A stretch of DNA of 64,000 nt, taken from positions 39,537 to 103,536 of the forward strand of contig CAVSHK010000028.1 in NCBI GenBank assembly GCA_963727705.1. Direction: 5' to 3'. The number at the start of each line of letters is the position of its first letter. Position 1 is the stretch's first letter. A program made the translations under genes and the position numbers. Source of the DNA: an uncultured Bacteroidota bacterium (GTDB taxonomy: Bacteria; Bacteroidota; Bacteroidia; 2-12-FULL-35-15). The notes below the pieces were generated by a model. It was not told where the DNA came from, ran no database searches, and was given only the letters and a program-made list of their open reading frames with translations. Positions 3,343-17,638 of this stretch are shown here, one piece after another.

Positions 3343-4293
3343 TTAATGCAAGCCTTTGTCAGCAAGGTAACGTTCTGCGTCTAAAGCTCCCATACATCCA
3401 CTGCCTGCTGATGTTACTGCCTGTCTGTAAACTTTATCTTGAGCATCTCCTGTTGCAAAAACACCCGGAATGTTTGTTTTGCTTGTACCCGGAATAGTTT
3501 TAATATAGCCTGTTTCATCCATATCTATCCAGCCCTTAAAAATATCGGTATTAGGTGTGTGACCTATGGCAACAAAAAAACCGGTAATGGTTAACCTGCG
3601 TTCTTCACCTTTATTATTCACTATCAATGCGCCCTCTACAGCTTTTCCACCAAGTATTTCTTTGGTTTCAGAATTGTAAATTACTTCAATATTTGGAGTG
3701 TTTAACACACGATGCTGCATGGCTTTTGATGCACGCATTTCGCCCTTACGAACAATCATATACACTTTGTTGCAAAGTTTAGCTAGATAGGTAGCTTCTT
3801 CTGCTGCGGTATCCCCTGCTCCAACAATGGCAACATCTTGTCCTTTGTAAAAGAATCCATCACATACTGCACACGCAGATACGCCAAAGCCATTCAAACG
3901 TTGTTCTGATTCTAAGCCAATCCATTTGGCCGAAGCACCTGTTGCTATAATGACTGCATCAGCCGTTATGGTTGTTTTTTCATCAACTATTACTTTGTGT
4001 ACCGGACCTGTAAAATCAACAGATGTAACCAATCCCCAACGTATATCAGTTCCAAAACGCTCTGCCTGAGCTTTAAAATCTTCCATCATTTCTGGTCCGT
4101 GAGCGCCCTTAGGATACCCTGGGAAATTATCCACTTCTGTAGTTATTGTTAATTGCCCACCCGGTTGTAATCCTTGATATATAACTGGTTTCATATCAGC
4201 CCGCGCTGCATATATCGCCGCTGTGTAGCCGGCCGGCCCACTACCTATTATTAAACATTTTATATGTTCTGTTTGCTCTGCCATTTGTATCAT
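3343..4293 (-). CDS. trxB: Thioredoxin-disulfide reductase
   Basis: GSGPAGYTAAIYAAR, the CAVC redox motif, GGGDTA and FATGD are hallmarks of TrxB. Confidence 0.92.
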   Translation of the reverse strand: MIQMAEQTEHIKCLIIGSGPAGYTAAIYAARADMKPVIYQGLQPGGQLTITTEVDNFPGYPKGAHGPEMMEDFKAQAERFGTDIRWGLVTSVDFTGPVHKVIVDEKTTITADAVIIATGASAKWIGLESEQRLNGFGVSACAVCDGFFYKGQDVAIVGAGDTAAEEATYLAKLCNKVYMIVRKGEMRASKAMQHRVLNTPNIEVIYNSETKEILGGKAVEGALIVNNKGEERRLTITGFFVAIGHTPNTDIFKGWIDMDETGYIKTIPGTSKTNIPGVFATGDAQDKVYRQAVTSAGSGCMGALDAERYLADKGLH

Positions 4294-5841: not shown

Positions 5842-6282
5842 TCATTTGTTTTTAAAATAATTAAAAATCGGATAATCCAGACTTATCTTTCCTGCTCCGT
5901 TGATAAGCAAAGTGAAAAGCATTACAAGATAATATAAGGGTATTTCATACCCATTATCTGCAGCGCTGAACCCATTTTGAAAATGCACAGTTTTTATTGC
6001 AACAAGCATTGTAATCATTAGTGGAATAGAAATAAAACGTGTGGCAAATCCAAATGTTAAAAATATGAACCCTAGTACTTCTGTATAAGTTGCCAAATAA
6101 GCACTTAATGTTGGGAATGGTATTTCAGAACTTGTAAACCATTCTGCAATAGCTCCTATATCTTTTATTTTCATCATTGCCGGTTCATAAAAACCATAAG
6201 CAAGCACTAATCGCATTACCAATAATGGGATGTCTTTAAGATGAGATAGTTTTTCTATACTATTAAAATATAAAGTTTTCAT
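5842..6282 (-). CDS. DoxX-family membrane protein. It is the last gene of the MNIO/bufferin-like operon, in the BufD-like position.
   Basis: A 146-aa protein with four transmembrane segments (LVMRLVLAYGFYEPAMMK...). It sits immediately downstream of the DUF2063 gene, as in buf operons. Confidence 0.75.
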   Translation of the reverse strand: MKTLYFNSIEKLSHLKDIPLLVMRLVLAYGFYEPAMMKIKDIGAIAEWFTSSEIPFPTLSAYLATYTEVLGFIFLTFGFATRFISIPLMITMLVAIKTVHFQNGFSAADNGYEIPLYYLVMLFTLLINGAGKISLDYPIFNYFKNK

Positions 6283-6353
6283 GGGTAAGATTTTTGTTTA
6301 TTGCTATCACGAATACACGAATATTTTTAATTCGTGTATTGGGATTGTTTATT

Positions 6354-7112
6354 TTAATTCTTAATTGCGTACCCGAGTACAAATTTTTTGTCCCTTAAAT
6401 CAGTTATAAAAGCAAGTGTAGTTTTGGTGAGTTCTTCTATATCAATATCACCAAATAATTGAGGTGCTTCATTCAGTAAAGTTTTAAGTGTTAAATTACC
6501 GGCATGTAACTGCTCAATGACCAATGCAAACCAAACGGAAATATCAATAAACTGAACTCTTCCTGTTTCATATTCTCTATATAACAAAATAAAATAATTA
6601 CCCATTTTTTCTTTAGCTGTAACAGGATTATATAAATGAATGGGGTATTTCAATTGCAATAACTTATGCTCAGGATTTACAATTAATAAATCATTCAACG
6701 TGTCGCCTATTATTTGGTAGGGTTTTGGAGAGATGTCTTCCATGTTGTAAATTACCATCTCTTCCCATTCAAATTTTAAAAGGTCGTTTAAAAAAGGTAA
6801 TTGAAATTTCTCTGCAAAATTTTCTGCAAGTGCATACTCATAAAATTCCCCTGCAATTTGCCACACCTGATAGCTTTGGCATTTATGATTCCTGAAAAAA
6901 TCATTCAGCATCACTGTCCATTTTTCAGCATCAATATATTTAAAGGCAATAGGAAATGCAGCTTCTATATTTTCTTCAATAACACTAAACACCAATCGTC
7001 TGTAATTTTGGATACGATTGGGTGTAACGCCGGGCAATGTTATTTCATCACCCGTACGGCAATACATCGCCATTGCACTTTGAATGGTTTTTGTTTCAGG
7101 CAACAAGCTCAT
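6354..7112 (-). CDS. DUF2063-family partner protein of the MNIO (MbnC/BufC-like)
   Basis: A 252-aa protein whose start overlaps the stop of the DUF692 gene by 17 bp. It has a YRRLVF...AFP N-terminal pattern and the size typical of DUF2063. Confidence 0.6.
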   Translation of the reverse strand: MSLLPETKTIQSAMAMYCRTGDEITLPGVTPNRIQNYRRLVFSVIEENIEAAFPIAFKYIDAEKWTVMLNDFFRNHKCQSYQVWQIAGEFYEYALAENFAEKFQLPFLNDLLKFEWEEMVIYNMEDISPKPYQIIGDTLNDLLIVNPEHKLLQLKYPIHLYNPVTAKEKMGNYFILLYREYETGRVQFIDISVWFALVIEQLHAGNLTLKTLLNEAPQLFGDIDIEELTKTTLAFITDLRDKKFVLGYAIKN

Positions 7113-7920
7113 TTTTTTTATTCCATTTTAAATTTGTAATAGAGCGTAAACGATTTAATTCACCATTCAATTCATCCATTTCGGGTATATTAAAATCTCT
7201 TTCCAGTAAAACCGGAACGGGTTTTATTTTTTCAATAGTCCATGCAAATAAATCATACACCGGATCAATAATGGCTTCACCATGCGTATCAATAATCAGG
7301 TCGGGAGCAACCTGCGTATGCCCTGCCATGTGTATATACGCTACTTTATCAAGTGGTAATTGTTCTATAAATGATTGTGCATGGTAATTATGATTGAATG
7401 CGTTTACGTAAACATTGTTTACGTCCAGCAGCAAGCTACATCCGGTTTCTTTTACAATCATGCTTATGAATTCTGCTTCTCCCATTTGGGCAGCAACAGG
7501 AGTGTAATAGGAAACATTTTCCATTACAAAAGGTCGTTCCAAATAATCTTGTACTTGTTTTATTTTTTCTATAACGTGTTTTGCCGCGTCTTCTCTGAAA
7601 GGTATTGGCAGTAAATCGTATAAATGTGCATTGTCGCATTTGGCAAAACTTAAGTGTTCCGAATATAGCTTAACGTTATATTCATCCAAAAACGATTTTA
7701 ATTTCTGCATGAAATCCATATCTAATGGGTCGGGACTTCCTATGGATAAAGACAAACCATGACAAAGTACAGGGTAACGTTCGGCTATTTTATGAATTTG
7801 TTTTTTTGAATTGCCACCCAAATTCATCCAGTTTTCGGGAGCAAATTCTACAAAGTCGGGGTTGATGCCGCCATTAATAAATTCGTCAGCAAAGTCTCGT
7901 CTATATCCTAATCCTATCAT
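7096..7920 (-). CDS. DUF692/UPF0276 multinuclear non-heme iron oxidase (MNIO; MbnB/BufB-like)
   Basis: MIGLGYRRDF..., HGLSLSIGSPDPLDMDFMQKLKSFLDEY, HLSFAKCDNAHLYDLLPIPF and FVMENVSYY form the TIM-barrel motif set of DUF692. Confidence 0.85.
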   Translation of the reverse strand: MIGLGYRRDFADEFINGGINPDFVEFAPENWMNLGGNSKKQIHKIAERYPVLCHGLSLSIGSPDPLDMDFMQKLKSFLDEYNVKLYSEHLSFAKCDNAHLYDLLPIPFREDAAKHVIEKIKQVQDYLERPFVMENVSYYTPVAAQMGEAEFISMIVKETGCSLLLDVNNVYVNAFNHNYHAQSFIEQLPLDKVAYIHMAGHTQVAPDLIIDTHGEAIIDPVYDLFAWTIEKIKPVPVLLERDFNIPEMDELNGELNRLRSITNLKWNKKNELVA

Positions 7921-7971
7921 GTTGGTTAATTTTTTAAGAAAAAGGGAGGCTATTCACCCCCCTTCATTTAA

Positions 7972-8289
7972 TTATTTCTTTTTATCACCACACGATGCGT
8001 CTTTCTTTTTGTCACCACATGATGCGTCTTTTTTCTTATCTCCGCATTTTCCTTCTCCGCATTTTCCTTCTTTTCCTTTTGCATGCTTTGTTTTAGCAGA
8101 GTCAGCACATTTTAATTCAATGGCTTTTAATGCAGAAGCAGCCTCGTTAAGCAAAGAACTTCTTACTTCAGCTCCTGATCCAAGAGAGGAATAGTTGCTC
8201 AATGTAGAAGCGTTAGCGCTGATGTTTGACAAGCCGATAAAGGCACTTGCGATTAATGAACCTGCAAGGATTGATTTTTTGTTTTCCAT
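7972..8289 (-). CDS. Secreted Cys-repeat RiPP precursor peptide (bufferin-like, BufA position)
   Basis: Sec signal peptide MENKKSILAGSLIASAFIGLSNISANA. A predicted amphipathic helix follows, then a Lys-rich tail: KCADSAKTKHAKGKEGKCGEGKCGDKKKDASCGDKKKDASCGDKKK. That tail has 5 Cys and is encoded by 2x15-bp and 2x27-bp tandem DNA repeats. Confidence 0.6.
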   Translation of the reverse strand: MENKKSILAGSLIASAFIGLSNISANASTLSNYSSLGSGAEVRSSLLNEAASALKAIELKCADSAKTKHAKGKEGKCGEGKCGDKKKDASCGDKKKDASCGDKKK

Positions 8290-8368
8290 TTTTTTAAGGT
8301 TTTTAAAAAGATTAATATTTGTTTATACCGAGATAGTAGAAACTCTTTTTAAAACCTTACAGAAAATT

Positions 8369-8653
8369 TTAAATATTTTTAAAATTTTCTTCAATGGTTT
8401 TCTGGAAGCGTATTTTAGAGGTATCGGAAAGTTTAAATTTAGAAATATTATTTTTAAGTGCGTTTTCAATTAAGCGACTTTGTTGCTGATACCTCAAACA
8501 ATTTATACAAATTTTCAGGTGTATTTGTAATTGTATTTTTTCGCGAAATGATAAGGGTTCTGTATAGCCCTTCTCCATAAGAAAAGTAGCCTTTTTGCAA
8601 AACAAAGTGGCATCTTTAAAAGTAAAAACAATACGATTGATAACCGTTTTCAT
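8369..8653 (-). CDS. Anti-sigma factor (zf-HC2-type), partner of the upstream ECF sigma
   Basis: A 94-aa protein with HLKICINC (HxxxCxxC). It lies 3 bp downstream of the sigma gene. Confidence 0.55.
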   Translation of the reverse strand: MKTVINRIVFTFKDATLFCKKATFLMEKGYTEPLSFREKIQLQIHLKICINCLRYQQQSRLIENALKNNISKFKLSDTSKIRFQKTIEENFKNI

Positions 8654-8656
8654 TCC

Positions 8657-9241
8657 TTATGTATTTATCCAATTTTTTTCAATACAAACTCTTAACAAAA
8701 GTTTGGCTCTGTGAATAAGCACCCAGTAGTTAGTAGAAGTAATGTTCAATTCCTTGCAAACAGTTTCTGTTTTATCTTCCTGTATCAGTTTCAAGTAAAT
8801 TAATTGTTTCTGGTTTTTTGGAAGTTTGTCCATACATTTTTCCAGAATGGCTGACAGCTCTTTGTTTTCAATGGAGTTGGAATAATCTATTTCCCATTTA
8901 TGAGGAGCTGTACTTTTTTTCCATTCACCTTCTTCATCAAAATAATTATCTAAAAAGTCGTCGTCCTCTATACTATACTCCGAGTTATTTACTTCGTATT
9001 TGGTGGAGGCTTTTTTGTAATGATCGGCTATTTTATTTTTCAGAATGGAATACAACCAGGTTCTTTCTGAACTTTCGCCTTTAAAATTAGGAAGTGATTT
9101 TAATCCTGCCAAAAATGTTTCCTGAACTAAATCTTCTGCTAAAATAGTGTCACTTGTTTTGGCTTTAGCGTAACCAAATAATTCATCAGCATATCTGTTG
9201 ACCCATTTATAAGGATTAATTTTATTTTCGTCTATTACCAT
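8657..9241 (-). CDS. ECF (sigma-70 family) RNA polymerase sigma factor
   Basis: Region-2 motif AEDLVQETFLAGLKSLPNFKGESSERTWLYSILKNKIADHYKK and a region-4 HTH (KQLIYLKLIQEDKTETVCKELNITSTNYWVLIHRAKLLLR). Confidence 0.85.
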   Translation of the reverse strand: MVIDENKINPYKWVNRYADELFGYAKAKTSDTILAEDLVQETFLAGLKSLPNFKGESSERTWLYSILKNKIADHYKKASTKYEVNNSEYSIEDDDFLDNYFDEEGEWKKSTAPHKWEIDYSNSIENKELSAILEKCMDKLPKNQKQLIYLKLIQEDKTETVCKELNITSTNYWVLIHRAKLLLRVCIEKNWINT

Positions 9242-9285
9242 TTTAATTAAATCAGGACAAATTTAATTAAAGAATAGAATGAACA

Positions 9286-9690
9286 TTACCATTTACTAAT
9301 AATTGTTGCATTTCCTTTTATCAAACCTCTGCAATTTTCGCTTTTGCAAATACACAGAAAAGGTTCATTCATGAGCGTTTCAGTAGTTTCATAATCAAAT
9401 GTTAATTCTTCGTTTGGTAAAATTGTTCTTAAGGCAATCTGTTGTAATTTTTTTGTATCAATAAACGTGTTAGGGTTACAGCTATGGTTCAAATGAGGCC
9501 ATACGAGTTGCTCCAACAATTGTTCATCCAAATCGAATGGATGCAAATGTTCGATTTTATTGAGTTGAATAGAGAATTTATCGGGATATAACAACACCTT
9601 TCCTTTAAAGTGCATAATAATCGTACCTGCTGCTATTTCAGCTGTTGATACTACTTTTTTAGAACGTTGTTCTTTATATACGCAAAACAC
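9286..9690 (-). CDS. SET-domain protein (putative protein-lysine methyltransferase)
   Basis: NHSCNPN and ELTFDY motifs, plus a Cys-rich post-SET region (CICKSENC). Confidence 0.7.
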   Translation of the reverse strand: MFCVYKEQRSKKVVSTAEIAAGTIIMHFKGKVLLYPDKFSIQLNKIEHLHPFDLDEQLLEQLVWPHLNHSCNPNTFIDTKKLQQIALRTILPNEELTFDYETTETLMNEPFLCICKSENCRGLIKGNATIISKW

Positions 9691-9744: not shown

Positions 9745-11074
9745 TTAATTTCTTCTATACGTTCTTATTTTAGCGTCCTTCCCTTTCAATTTTTCTTTTT
9801 GTGCAGGACCACCTAAATTCACTTTTTTATTTTTTTCTTTTTTCTCATGAAATGCAGCACCCGGAACATAATTATCTTTTGATTTTTTAGGCTTTATTTT
9901 GCTTCCTATTTTAGGTAATTCGTCGTCGGTAAGCATTTTAGAGACTACCACTTTTTCCGGCAACGGTTCATTAGGAATAGCTTTATTCATTACCATTTCA
10001 ATAGCCTCTTGATATTCCTGCTCTGCTTCATTAATAAATGTAATGGCTACACCGGCTTTATTTGCCCTGCCTGTTCTTCCTATGCGATGTATATAATCTT
10101 CAGGGGTTTCGGGAGTATCAAAATTTACAACATGGGTAACATCCGAAATATCCAATCCTCTGGCAAGAATATCTGTGGCAATTAATACGCGTTTAGAACC
10201 ATCGTGAAATTGCTTTAATGAATTGATGCGCGCCGTTTGCGATAAATTAGAATGTATTACAGCAACACCTTCAGGAAATTTAGGTTTTATATGATCGAAC
10301 AAATCATCTGCTAATTTTTTTGTTCCAACAAACACCAACACTTTACTCATGCTATCATCATTTTTTAAAAGAAATTCCAGCAAATTTACCTTGGTGTAAA
10401 AATTAGGAACATGATAACAGAGTTGAATAATCTTTTCCAACGGAGTACCGTGTGGAGCTACTTCAATTTTTTCGGGTTGATAAAAATACTTGGCAATTAC
10501 CTGTTCTATTTCCTCACTCATCGTTGCCGAAAACATCAGGTTTTGTCGCTTAACAGGCAATGTTTCCAAAAAACTTAATAACTGTTGACGAAATCCCAAA
10601 CTCAACATTTGGTCAACTTCATCAATCACCAGCCTGTTTAATGTCTTTTAATCGTAACAAGCCTGTAAGTGCCAAATCAACAAGTCTTCCGGGAGTTGCA
10701 ACAATTATGTCCACTCCGTTATACACCAGTTGTTTTTGTGTATTAATATTGGTTCCTCCATACACTGCCAAAAAACGAATGCTGGTATAAGTACTTAGTT
10801 TTTCAATCTCTTTTACAATTTGCAAAACAAGTTCACGGGTGGGCACAATCACCAATACACGCGGGTGCCGTTGATCCGAATATTTTAACTGCCGCAAAAT
10901 AGGTAATAAATAAGCAAATGTTTTACCTGTCCCGGTCTGCGCAATTCCTACCATATCTTTGCCCGACATAATAATGGGAAATGCCATTTCCTGAATGGGT
11001 GTGGCTTGTACATACCCTAAATCGTCTAATGCGTTGCTTAATGGTTTGTTTAAATTTAGTTTTTCGAACGACAC
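9745..11074 (-). CDS. DEAD-box ATP-dependent RNA helicase, split into two ORFs by a single-base insertion at about 10625-10632
   Basis: The N-terminal part has the Q-motif and AQTGTGKT. The C-terminal part starts at (L)VIDEVDQM and carries SAT and HRIGRTGR. The sequence caggctggtgattgatga reads as cag-ctg-gtg-att-gat-gaa once one g is removed. Confidence 0.85.
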
Positions 11075-14685: not shown

Positions 14686-15633
14686 TTAACATACAAAATT
14701 TTCAATCAATTCCAAGTCACTTAATTTATTGATATTTTGCACTACCTCCCCTTTTTGATTTTCGGAAAAAATACTTATAAATTTTGCGCCGCAAACCAAC
14801 TCATCAATAGTATAGGAATACCTTCTGTGTACGGTTTGAGAAAAGGTATCGTCAAAGCCATTTAGTATTATCAGAAACTCTGCTTTGGCTTCTTTCAAGT
14901 CTTTAAAATTCATTCCGTAAATGGGACTGTTTTCATTAATAGGATGATTGACAGTCCATGAAAGCGGAAAAAAAGTGATTTTATTTAGTTCCAAATCCAT
15001 TTGCCTGAAACGACGGACTTTTACTCCGTTTTCTATTTCAAATTTTGCAACTATTATTCGGGCTTCCATATCAGTAATTTGACTATTGCTCATTTTATTC
15101 ACAATTCTAAACTGAAATGCGGTAGCATCTTTAAACGGAGCAATAATGGCGTTTTTACTAAAAATGATGTGTGCCTGTGGTCGGGAAAACCTACCGTAAA
15201 GTAAACCGGTAGCAATTGCAAAACCTAATAAACCTACCAATGATTCAACTGCTGCAACAGCACTCACCAAATGACTTACAGGACTTATTCTTCCAAAACC
15301 AACGGTGCTTAATGTTTGTGTACTGAAGAAAAACACATTTAGGAATTTATCTGTTTCACTCCTTACACCATCAATTCCATTTAAACCGTCTATACCAACA
15401 CTATAATAACAAGCAGTAAAAAATAAATTTATAATGAAAAAATAAGCCAACACAATTAAATTAAATTTTCTCCACGACATTAATAATAAAGCGTGATAAA
15501 CACTTATGGAGTGCCATTTGGATGGTTCTACCCTGTTTACATTAAACGATCCGTCAGGATTTATTAATCTGGTATTTTGGGTGGCGCCCTTAGTACCAAA
15601 CCCCAATTCCTTATTTTCCTGTTGTTTTTTCAT
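14686..15633 (-). CDS. Inward-rectifier-type potassium channel (KirBac-like)
   Basis: Two transmembrane segments flank the pore helix with the TVGFG selectivity filter (STQTLSTVGFGRISP). A cytoplasmic beta-rich domain follows. Confidence 0.7.
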   Translation of the reverse strand: MKKQQENKELGFGTKGATQNTRLINPDGSFNVNRVEPSKWHSISVYHALLLMSWRKFNLIVLAYFFIINLFFTACYYSVGIDGLNGIDGVRSETDKFLNVFFFSTQTLSTVGFGRISPVSHLVSAVAAVESLVGLLGFAIATGLLYGRFSRPQAHIIFSKNAIIAPFKDATAFQFRIVNKMSNSQITDMEARIIVAKFEIENGVKVRRFRQMDLELNKITFFPLSWTVNHPINENSPIYGMNFKDLKEAKAEFLIILNGFDDTFSQTVHRRYSYTIDELVCGAKFISIFSENQKGEVVQNINKLSDLELIENFVC

Positions 15634-17553: not shown

Positions 17554-17638
17554 GGAGAAATGGCAGAGTGGTCGATTGCGGCAGTCTTGAAAACTGTTGA
17601 AGGTAACACTTCCGGGGGTTCGAATCCCTCTTTCTCCG
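17554..17638 (+). tRNA. tRNA-Ser (anticodon UGA) with a long variable arm
   Basis: Acceptor stem GGAGAAA/TTTCTCC, anticodon loop cTTGAaa, T-arm GGTTCGAATCC and a 15-nt variable arm. Confidence 0.85.

Follow-up and report, generated by a model that had tools for sequence, protein, structure and literature searches.

A probable Hvf-type peptide-modification operon in an uncultured Bacteroidota bacterium, with its own ECF sigma factor and soluble anti-sigma factor

What is made by a six-gene operon that joins an extracytoplasmic function (ECF) sigma factor to a small Cys-rich protein and its putative modifying enzymes, and is the product new? The question is raised by a locus in a 64,000-nucleotide stretch of DNA (hereafter the window) from an uncultured Bacteroidota bacterium (assembly GCA_963727705.1, contig CAVSHK010000028.1, positions 39,537 to 103,536). 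An initial annotation described six co-directional genes on the minus strand and read them as a bufferin-like operon for a peptide that is ribosomally synthesized and modified after translation (RiPP). The six encode an ECF sigma factor, an anti-sigma factor, a Cys-rich precursor, a multinuclear nonheme iron-dependent oxidase (MNIO), a DUF2063 partner and a DoxX protein. All six open reading frames (ORFs) are present where that annotation had placed them, running from sigma to DoxX over 9241-5842, and Pfam and NCBIfam agree with the identities assigned. In the same order, the genes are separated by 3 nt, 79 nt and 51 nt, a 17-nt overlap between MNIO and partner, and 71 nt, and a convergent FBPase gene bounds the cluster downstream. 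Most probably, the locus represents the Hvf (oxazolin, Buf_EGKCG) RiPP system as it occurs in Bacteroidota, together with a cognate ECF sigma factor and zinc-binding anti-sigma (ZAS) factor. Gene identities, family placement, conserved synteny, a conserved promoter, and internal promoter and hairpin elements support this directly.

The MNIO (7096-7920; 274 amino acids [aa]) scores 339.8 bits (E = 1.3e-101) against the Pfam DUF692 model PF05114, which bears out its first identification. Among the NCBIfam models, it lies above the HvfB equivalog cut-off (NF003818, 383.9 bits versus 360) and below that of the bufferin enzyme BufB (NF050167, 287 bits versus 310). It is far from MbnB (TIGR04159, 56.2 versus a cut-off of 325) and likewise distant from ApyH and ChrH. 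Among solved structures, 3BWW (E = 2e-70) comes closest; it is the HvfB orthologue of Histophilus somni, with 72% identity to HvfB. All iron-ligand motifs are there, namely, CH54GLS, SEH89LSF, ME134N, D166VNN169, H197MAGH201, D211TH213GE and LE240RD. The ligand roles are taken from the MbnB and HvfB literature, in which the HvfB site-3 residues are N175, D242 and H244.

The partner (6354-7112; 252 aa) combines the DUF2063 domain foreseen by the initial annotation (PF09836, 57.1 bits; cut-off, 27.2) with an NGO1945_C domain, a RiPP recognition element (RRE) (PF22106, 37.7 bits; cut-off, 27). In NCBIfam it matches HvfC alone (NF050145, 127 bits over the full model length; cut-off, 142), and it also matches structure 3DEE (NGO1945; E = 4.5e-4). 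The DoxX membrane protein (5842-6282; 146 aa) scores 62.6 bits against PF07681 and lies above the HvfX cut-off (NF050144, 130.6 versus 80). By these model scores, the MNIO, partner and DoxX proteins are assigned to the Hvf subfamilies. In the HvfA system, DoxX probably has a non-biosynthetic role.

The precursor gene (7972-8289) encodes a 105-aa peptide related to HvfA/Buf_EGKCG. Its N terminus looks like a Sec-type signal peptide by inspection (codons 8209-8289), with a KK pair, hydrophobic residues 6-20, and A25-N26-A27 followed by S28. Hydrophobicity peaks at residues 7-18, and the same n-h-c anatomy is visible by inspection in 40 aligned homologues. The peptide has five Cys residues: C61 (8107-8109), C77 (8059-8061), C82 (8044-8046), C91 (8017-8019) and C100 (7990-7992). 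Its tail reads GKCGEGKCGDKKKDASCGDKKKDASCGDKKK, as first quoted. Within this layout, C77 and C82 form one KCGEGKCG doublet, and C91 and C100 lie in two DKKKDASCG units. The first Cys stands in the context ELKCA, and in most relatives Gly follows that Cys (ELKCG). Tandem Repeats Finder resolves the core into tandem DNA repeats (7975-8071): a 15-bp repeat of 2.2 copies that encodes the GEGKC units (8039-8071) and a 27-bp repeat of 2.4 copies with 87% matches that encodes the DKKKDASCG units (7975-8040). As initially annotated, the precursor lies outside the DUF2282 and Buf_6/12Cys families. It has no Pfam match at E <= 1, DUF2282 (PF10048) included, and its X-C-G repeats are unlike Buf_6/12Cys, as judged by pattern.

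The peptide nevertheless belongs to a large family. A search returned 318 precursor homologues at E <= 0.01, and a profile built from 40 of them retrieves more than 2,000, the best 120 of which are all of Bacteroidota/Ignavibacteriota type. Among the sources named are Sphingobacteriaceae, Pedobacter, Chitinophaga, Bacteroidia, Melioribacter and Ignavibacteriae. Many homologues carry the JGI label "uncharacterized low-complexity protein", and the UniRef name of one Chitinophaga pendula homologue begins "HvfA family oxazolone/thioamide-...". The hallmarks of the family are a signal peptide (MENKKSILAGS...ANA), an LGSGAEVRSxLL block and the ELKCG site, followed by a core in which KDGKCGEGKCGDKK doublets and single KDA[K/S/T]CG[D/E]KK units vary in number. 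When the 40 homologues were scanned singly against NCBIfam (E <= 0.01), 36 matched NF050137 (KCGExKCG_twice) and 34 matched the HvfA equivalog NF050188. Bacteroidota homologues already bear the HvfA family name at NCBI. The window precursor itself is, on its scores (given below), a sub-threshold relative of the HvfA family and not a model-defined member. The initial description of a "divergent, probably uncharacterised MNIO product" is therefore not upheld. It overlooked the HvfA (Buf_EGKCG/oxazolin) family, to which these homologue matches and the HvfB and HvfX scores point.

Variation within the family illuminates the window copy. Its relative P0002 (77% identity) has a second doublet where the window precursor has the two DKKKDASCG units. 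P0001, a variant at 96% identity whose layout is the same, occurs on 17 contigs, so the window precursor is a genuine allele rather than a product of misassembly. S/T-Cys-Gly sites make up about 3% of the Cys contexts in the family and are thus rare yet recurrent. As a separate observation, four homologues (P0008, P0011, P0013 and P0015) have one KCGEGKCG doublet followed by a His/Lys-rich tail (HKKDAK...EHKK...) with no further Cys. These His/Lys-tailed members may represent a distinct metal-binding subtype.

The gene order is conserved well beyond the window. A scan of one genome per species yielded 173 MNIO relatives, and the best 80, which were examined as related loci, all belong to Bacteroidota, Ignavibacteriota, Chlorobiota or Calditrichota. 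Closest to the window MNIO are those of a Sphingobacteriaceae metagenome-assembled genome (MAG) (85% identity) and a Bacteroidetes MAG (84%), consistent with the Bacteroidota host proposed at the outset. About 35 to 45 of the related loci keep the order sigma, anti-sigma, precursor, MNIO, HvfC, DoxX. This order is seen in cultured Chitinophaga and in Carboxylicivirga, Marinilabiliaceae, Prolixibacter, Ignavibacterium/Ignavibacteriales and Sphingobacteriaceae, and the remaining loci have no sigma pair or no DoxX within the stretch fetched. The precursor gene is conserved and always adjoins the MNIO gene. In two Calditrichaceae MAGs, two separate MNIO/HvfC loci were found per genome (L028 and L033 in one, L030 and L038 in the other), indicating that the Hvf system can be duplicated within a genome.

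Upstream, the sigma factor (8657-9241; 194 aa) matches Sigma70_r2 (57.3 bits), Sigma70_r4_2 (29.1 bits) and TIGR02937 (80.5 bits; cut-off, 42.9). Its best specific model, TIGR02943, gives 149.6 bits, under the cut-off of 162.2, and the text of the ECF reclassification paper mentions none of DUF692, DUF2063 and DoxX. In about 45 related loci, a sigma gene precedes the precursor. The anti-sigma factor (8369-8653; 94 aa) carries the motif C19-x25-H45-x3-C49-x2-C52, whose four residues are invariant in 35/35 homologues. It is called a ZAS protein because of this Cys/His motif and a near-cut-off score against NF052368 (antisigmaE). No hydrophobic or transmembrane segment was found in it, in keeping with a soluble, zinc-binding protein. 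The initial annotation had named it a zf-HC2 anti-sigma factor. Its identification as an anti-sigma factor and the proposed ECF sigma/anti-sigma control stand; the Pfam zf-HC2 model itself has no match at E <= 1. With its soluble ZAS protein, the sigma/anti-sigma pair belongs with Neisseria sigma-E/MseR and with Haemophilus RpoE2/HrsE, not with the NrsF type reported for Buf1 clusters. By analogy with these systems, a soluble ZAS anti-sigma factor points to thiol-oxidative stress as the likely trigger, so induction by thiol-oxidizing or hypochlorite stress is predicted, rather than direct sensing of Cu or Au.

Is the precursor operon itself under the control of this sigma factor? The spacers between the anti-sigma and precursor genes of the relatives share a conserved bipartite motif, cTGTAAGGwTTT-N11-CGTCTA, which is kept upstream of the precursor in 38 loci. 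In the window, the predicted ECF-dependent promoter (8332-8360, minus strand) consists of a -35 element GTAAGGTTT (8360-8352), a 12-nt spacer and a -10 element CTACTATC (8339-8332). It lies 71 nt upstream of the precursor gene, with a predicted start near 8326. A position weight matrix (PWM) was made from 29 related loci, with the window and its duplicate left out. Its sites were seeded by a TGTAAG/AGTAAG regular expression, of which the -10 half and the window match are independent. The top PWM score in the window, 21.8, falls at 8364-8328 (minus strand), compared with a maximum of 14.3 over 10 mononucleotide shuffles.

The motif also matches a characterized promoter. The sigma-E promoter of Neisseria has a -35 element GTMAGBWTT, a 12- to 13-nt spacer and a -10 element CGTCTAAH (PMC2893595). 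When the -10 element of this literature pattern is relaxed (GTMAGBWTT-N12-CNNCTA), it has a single match in the 64 kb, at 8334-8360 (minus strand), where 0.05 are expected. The window promoter agrees exactly with the Neisseria consensus in the -35 element and the 12-nt spacer, and its -10 element CTACTATC agrees at 5/8 positions. In the window, as in the two relatives nearest to it, every copy has a -10 element of the form C[T/G]ACTA, a pattern that looks like co-variation with the sigma factor. When the last two -10 positions are required, the Neisseria consensus occurs in 2 of the related loci; with the CGTCTA core, it occurs in 13. Most sites are one or two bases off the consensus, so the PWM is the better descriptor.

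Further copies of the motif were noted. The third-best PWM match in the window (14825-14861, plus strand; 13.9) was considered as a further regulon member and rejected, as shuffled sequence reaches comparable scores and the site runs antisense to an ORF that contains it. Some relatives have additional high-scoring ECF promoter copies downstream of the cluster (L034 at 7772, L045 at 4825, L040 at 6875 and L051 at 6875), and the genes behind them are candidate extra members of the regulon. In the window, a perfect inverted repeat of 11 bp lies in the spacer between hvfC and doxX (6312-6340, no strand assigned). In its place, the two closest genomes have a gene for a 183-aa protein (L002, 3390-3941) that begins with a signal-peptide-like hydrophobic N terminus, and both have a third ECF promoter copy just upstream of doxX (L002 at 3945; L003 at 4478). 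This difference suggests a deletion in the lineage of the window.

A second copy of the ECF-type promoter is predicted within the sigma gene. This element, GCAAGGAAT-N12-CTACTAAC (8729-8757, minus strand), lies in the region-4.2 codons; it and its predicted start stand about 70 nt ahead of the anti-sigma ATG. Its PWM score is 16.4 (8761-8725, minus strand), again above the shuffle maximum. In 38 related loci, a motif scoring >15 overlies the codons for V-C-K-E-L-x-I-[T/S]-x-S-N of sigma region 4.2 (L002 at 946, L003 at 1463, L005 at 3112 and 35 others). Codon usage was compared across 41 sigma genes with a median identity of 46%; the binomial tails ignore phylogeny, and the control columns are mixed. 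Under the motif, Lys is encoded by AAG in 39/40 genes (background, 23%) and Cys by TGT in 39/40 (background, 43%), while TGC predominates in two further invariant Cys columns. Before Ser, the variable residue (S, A, T or P) has a codon of the form xCG in 36/38 (background, 16%), and Ser itself is TCT in 26/37 (background, 15%). By this codon evidence, the predicted internal promoter is held in place by synonymous-site selection, and constraint on the protein alone does not account for it.

Two further elements may shape expression of the operon. A candidate element TAAATTTG (TAnnTTTG; 9258-9265, minus strand) lies 24 nt upstream of the sigma ATG. TAnnTTTG matches the housekeeping -7 promoter element of Bacteroidota. 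In 9/40 loci it occurs at a distance of 16-31 nt upstream of the start of the sigma gene, with about 1.8 expected from a background of 0.044 per 100 nt, and we infer that it is part of the sigma gene's own promoter. In the Chitinophaga loci, this region instead has an element of the CCGTAAGC type. The spacer between precursor and MNIO contains a G+C-rich hairpin with a T-run (7937-7962, minus strand), a terminator-like site that follows the precursor stop codon (dG, -11.4 kcal/mol) and is a candidate partial terminator or attenuator. A hairpin with a T-run stands at the same position in 47/66 related loci, with unrelated sequences. This suggests partial termination, such that precursor mRNA exceeds enzyme mRNA. 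An Rfam scan of the whole window had its sole match at a tRNA gene (17554-17638, plus strand) and detected no RNA element within the locus.

How, then, does the locus compare with characterized systems? The HvfA family was characterized in Haemophilus influenzae in 2024 (PMC11252979). HvfA of the nontypeable strain is a 95-aa peptide that combines three AEGKCGEGKCG repeats with a Sec signal peptide, and six of its Cys residues are modified by HvfB and HvfC with a loss of 4 Da each, creating a 302-nm chromophore (PMC11252979). The modified peptide binds Cu(I) at a ratio of about one to every two modifications (PMC11252979). The modification, first assigned as oxazolone/thioamide, was reassigned as 5-thiooxazole in 2026 (10.64898/2026.06.05.730506; 10.64898/2026.07.17.739211). 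The chemistry expected by the initial annotation (-4 Da per Cys, absorbance at about 302-305 nm and 5-thiooxazoles) agrees with this current assignment.

The window locus shares with Haemophilus HvfABCX a precursor with an apparent Sec signal peptide and (E)GKCG motifs, an HvfB, an HvfC with DUF2063 and RRE domains, a DoxX protein of HvfX type and control by an ECF sigma factor whose ZAS anti-sigma factor is small and soluble (RpoE2/HrsE; PMC7907618). In Haemophilus, the hvf/doxX operon is RpoE2 dependent, induced by HOCl and co-regulated with MsrAB, and a 67-aa cytoplasmic anti-sigma factor holds RpoE2 (PMC7907618). The host differs, being Bacteroidota here and Pseudomonadota there. Here, doxX comes last and the sigma and anti-sigma genes lie directly upstream, whereas in Haemophilus doxX comes first and rpoE2 lies elsewhere. 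The core has one KCGEGKCG doublet and two DASCG singlets in place of the three AEGKCGEGKCG repeats, and the N-region has one Cys (ELKCA) where HvfA has the C38/C43 disulfide pair. The LGSGAEVRSxLL motif of the N-region is conserved among the homologues of Bacteroidota/Ignavibacteriota type, with HvfA compared by models and description.

The resemblance to the sigma-E operon of Neisseria (NMB2140-NMB2145 and NGO1948-NGO1943) is equally close. That operon clusters the same six gene types, including the ZAS anti-sigma factor MseR (PMC2893595, PMC3240639), and its promoter follows the same grammar. Together with msrAB, it makes up the sigma-E regulon (PMC2893595). In Neisseria, a single autoregulated promoter before doxX drives all six genes, with the sigma and anti-sigma genes last. 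Here, by contrast, these two genes come first, behind an apparent housekeeping-type element, one ECF promoter lies between anti-sigma and precursor with a second copy inside the sigma gene, and the -10 element of the window clade is C[TG]ACTA. The regulatory design, with its predicted internal promoter, is like that of SigH-RshA in Corynebacterium glutamicum. There, a SigH-dependent promoter, PrshA, lies inside sigH, with starts 62-66 nt upstream of the anti-sigma start; housekeeping promoters drive the sigma and ZAS anti-sigma genes jointly, and PrshA makes anti-sigma alone for rapid shut-off (PMC3489674). The ECF group and promoter (GGAA-N-GTT type) of SigH are unrelated, and its regulon is large and without a RiPP.

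With the bufferins Buf1 (DUF2282) and Buf2 (Buf_6/12Cys), the locus has in common the core of MNIO, DUF2063 and DoxX proteins and a Sec-exported precursor (PMC11626156, PMC12452194), so the bufferin-like layout initially recognized stands, with the signal peptide judged by inspection. It would also share the conversion of Cys to 5-thiooxazole and the periplasmic binding of Cu(I), which are features of the bufferins. It differs in its precursor family, in an MNIO under the BufB cut-off and in a ZAS rather than the NrsF-type anti-sigma factor of Buf1 clusters. Methanobactin (MbnABC) is more distant, given the low MbnB score and a precursor that has a putative signal peptide and not an MbnA leader. 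A survey of MNIO clusters, which makes no mention of Bacteroidota, puts the Buf_EGKCG/oxazolin precursors at about 2,000 and finds most of them in Pseudomonadota; their core cluster comprises precursor, MNIO, DUF2063 and DoxX. The differences of the window locus from the Hvf paradigm, in phylum, gene order, two-promoter wiring, N-region motif and SCG repeats, leave the kind of system unchanged.

By homology, these comparisons suggest a 5-thiooxazole chemistry, Cu binding, an inducing signal and a feedback logic for the locus. In the unstressed cell, the soluble zinc-binding anti-sigma factor would keep the sigma factor inactive. Thiol-oxidizing stress, from hypochlorite-like oxidants and possibly thiophilic metals, would free it to fire the GTAAGGTTT-N12-CTACTATC promoter ahead of the precursor, and the hairpin and T-run would probably raise the precursor message over the enzyme messages. 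In the cytoplasm, the HvfB-type MNIO, with its peptide-binding HvfC partner, would then oxidize the Cys residues of X-Cys-Gly sites to 5-thiooxazoles, at -4 Da each. C77 and C82 of the KCGEGKCG doublet would be the surest sites, and C91 and C100 (DASCG) are probable ones. The Sec signal peptide would carry the peptide to the periplasm, with predicted cleavage by signal peptidase I after Ala27. There, pairs of heterocycles could bind Cu(I), and about two Cu per peptide would be expected. Finally, the internal promoter in the sigma gene would yield extra anti-sigma factor and so end the response.

Several points weigh against reading the locus as a Hvf system with its own regulator. The window precursor scores under both HvfA models (NF050188, 17.5 versus 95; NF050137, 14.4 versus 19.5) because it has a single KCGExKCG doublet, and its signal peptide call rests on inspection. 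S-C-G sites are not known to be substrates. Both the partner and the anti-sigma factor lie just under the relevant NCBIfam cut-offs (HvfC, 127 versus 142; NF052368, 47.7 versus 50 bits). The -10 element of the window clade, CTACTA, departs from CGTCTA at two positions, and where 39/40 relatives have T in the -35 element of the internal promoter, the window has C (TGC); this degenerate copy may be weak. In addition, a motif search of the 64-kb window found no msrA, msrB, CPx-ATPase, HMA domains or second MNIO or precursor, and thus neither msrAB nor copper genes to back either physiological role.

The low precursor scores invite the explanation that a Hvf-type operon is retained with a decaying or reduced precursor, in which only C77 and C82 are modified, a single Cu(I) site forms and the duplicated DKKKDASCG tail is an unmodified, Lys-rich appendage. 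This accords with the presence of two doublets in P0002, the rarity of S/T-Cys-Gly contexts and the fact that all characterized HvfA sites are K-C-G. However, single KDA[KST]CG[DE]KK units recur in many relatives, with K, S and T interchangeable and the Gly after Cys kept, which argues that these sites are under selection as substrates. The layout also persists in P0001 across its 17 contigs, and HvfB acts even on very small HvfA fragments (PMC11252979), so we consider a reduced allele unlikely. The nature of the regulator raises a different doubt, concerning function. The product could serve mainly in envelope defence against oxidative or chlorine stress, as a redox buffer or as an oxidant sink with DoxX, and bind copper only incidentally. 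The ZAS control, the HOCl induction and MsrAB co-regulation in Haemophilus, and the pairing of operon and msrAB in the Neisseria regulon all fit such a role, as does the requirement for DUF692/DUF2063 operons in chlorite resistance, with chlorite-sensitive mutants, in three gammaproteobacteria. Modified HvfA and bufferins nevertheless bind Cu(I) through their heterocycles, and bufferins protect against copper. As the two roles are compatible and the genes in the window do not discriminate between them, a mainly oxidant-directed function is doubtful but a genuine contender.

Two other explanations find far less room. The locus could be a bufferin (Buf1/Buf2) operon proper, like those of Caulobacter, Bordetella and Cupriavidus, whose precursor is aberrant. 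In favour are the same four core gene types, an apparently Sec-exported precursor and the 287 bits that the MNIO still reaches against BufB. Yet this score is under the BufB cut-off while that for HvfB is above its own, the precursor has neither a DUF2282 match nor a 6/12-Cys pattern, and the anti-sigma factor is a ZAS protein and not of the NrsF type found with Buf1. We regard it as very improbable. Hardly credible at all is the notion that DUF692 and DUF2063 are stress-signalling proteins, for example, anti-anti-sigma factors, that act on the sigma pair, with the small protein as low-complexity filler. It was proposed from fitness data before the biochemistry, and DUF2063 was once annotated as DNA binding. 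HvfB and HvfC have since been proven biochemically to modify HvfA, which already refutes the idea for the Haemophilus orthologues, and the conserved precursor always sits beside the MNIO gene with a promoter directly before it. The locus is thus best read as a Hvf system with its own sigma pair. A bolder, tentative extension, which is possible though short of an even chance, is that the Hvf system of Bacteroidota and Ignavibacteriota has been rewired in comparison with its proteobacterial form, with a housekeeping-driven sigma/anti-sigma pair and a duplicated sigma-E-type promoter, and that 27-bp tandem duplications recently remodelled the window precursor by creating Ser-Cys-Gly singlet sites. 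The second promoter copy, in the region-4.2 codons, would then drive the anti-sigma gene alone. If HvfB modifies the Ser-Cys-Gly singlets (C-x8-C), the product would have a Ser-derived substituent and a Cu geometry unlike that of the KCGEGKC clamp.

The surroundings of the cluster were also inspected. An ORF encoding a SET domain (9286-9690, minus strand; PF00856, E = 8e-12) lies upstream of the sigma gene at a distance of 44 nt. As it has a counterpart in 0/80 related loci, it was excluded from the cluster. SET-domain proteins are unusual among bacteria. Further upstream, a DEAD-box RNA helicase is broken into two overlapping ORFs (9745-10629 and 10622-11074, minus strand; 294 aa and 150 aa). 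The break falls at the DEAD motif (...KDIKQAGD* / MIDEVDQML...), a frameshift that reflects either a pseudogene or a sequencing error. On the other side, two genes from the cluster, lies a thioredoxin reductase gene (3343-4293, minus strand) with a CAVC motif and, on the identical contig L001, a Pyr_redox_2 match. It fits the theme of thiol redox, and its presence may be a coincidence.

The assignment shifts this locus from a possible new RiPP class to a well-understood family, which spares wasted effort. The natural precursor variants, with K, S or T before Cys and with singlets or doublets, offer probes for the substrate rules of HvfB and for Cu stoichiometry. The codons beneath the internal promoter provide a clear comparative case of a promoter within a coding sequence that is maintained by synonymous-site selection. 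As the promoter motif is apparently conserved between Neisseria and Bacteroidota, it gives a ready route to regulon prediction in these phyla. Descriptions of the Hvf/oxazolin system place it mostly in proteobacteria; here it is seen to be widespread among Bacteroidota, Ignavibacteriota and related groups, where it comes with its regulator attached.

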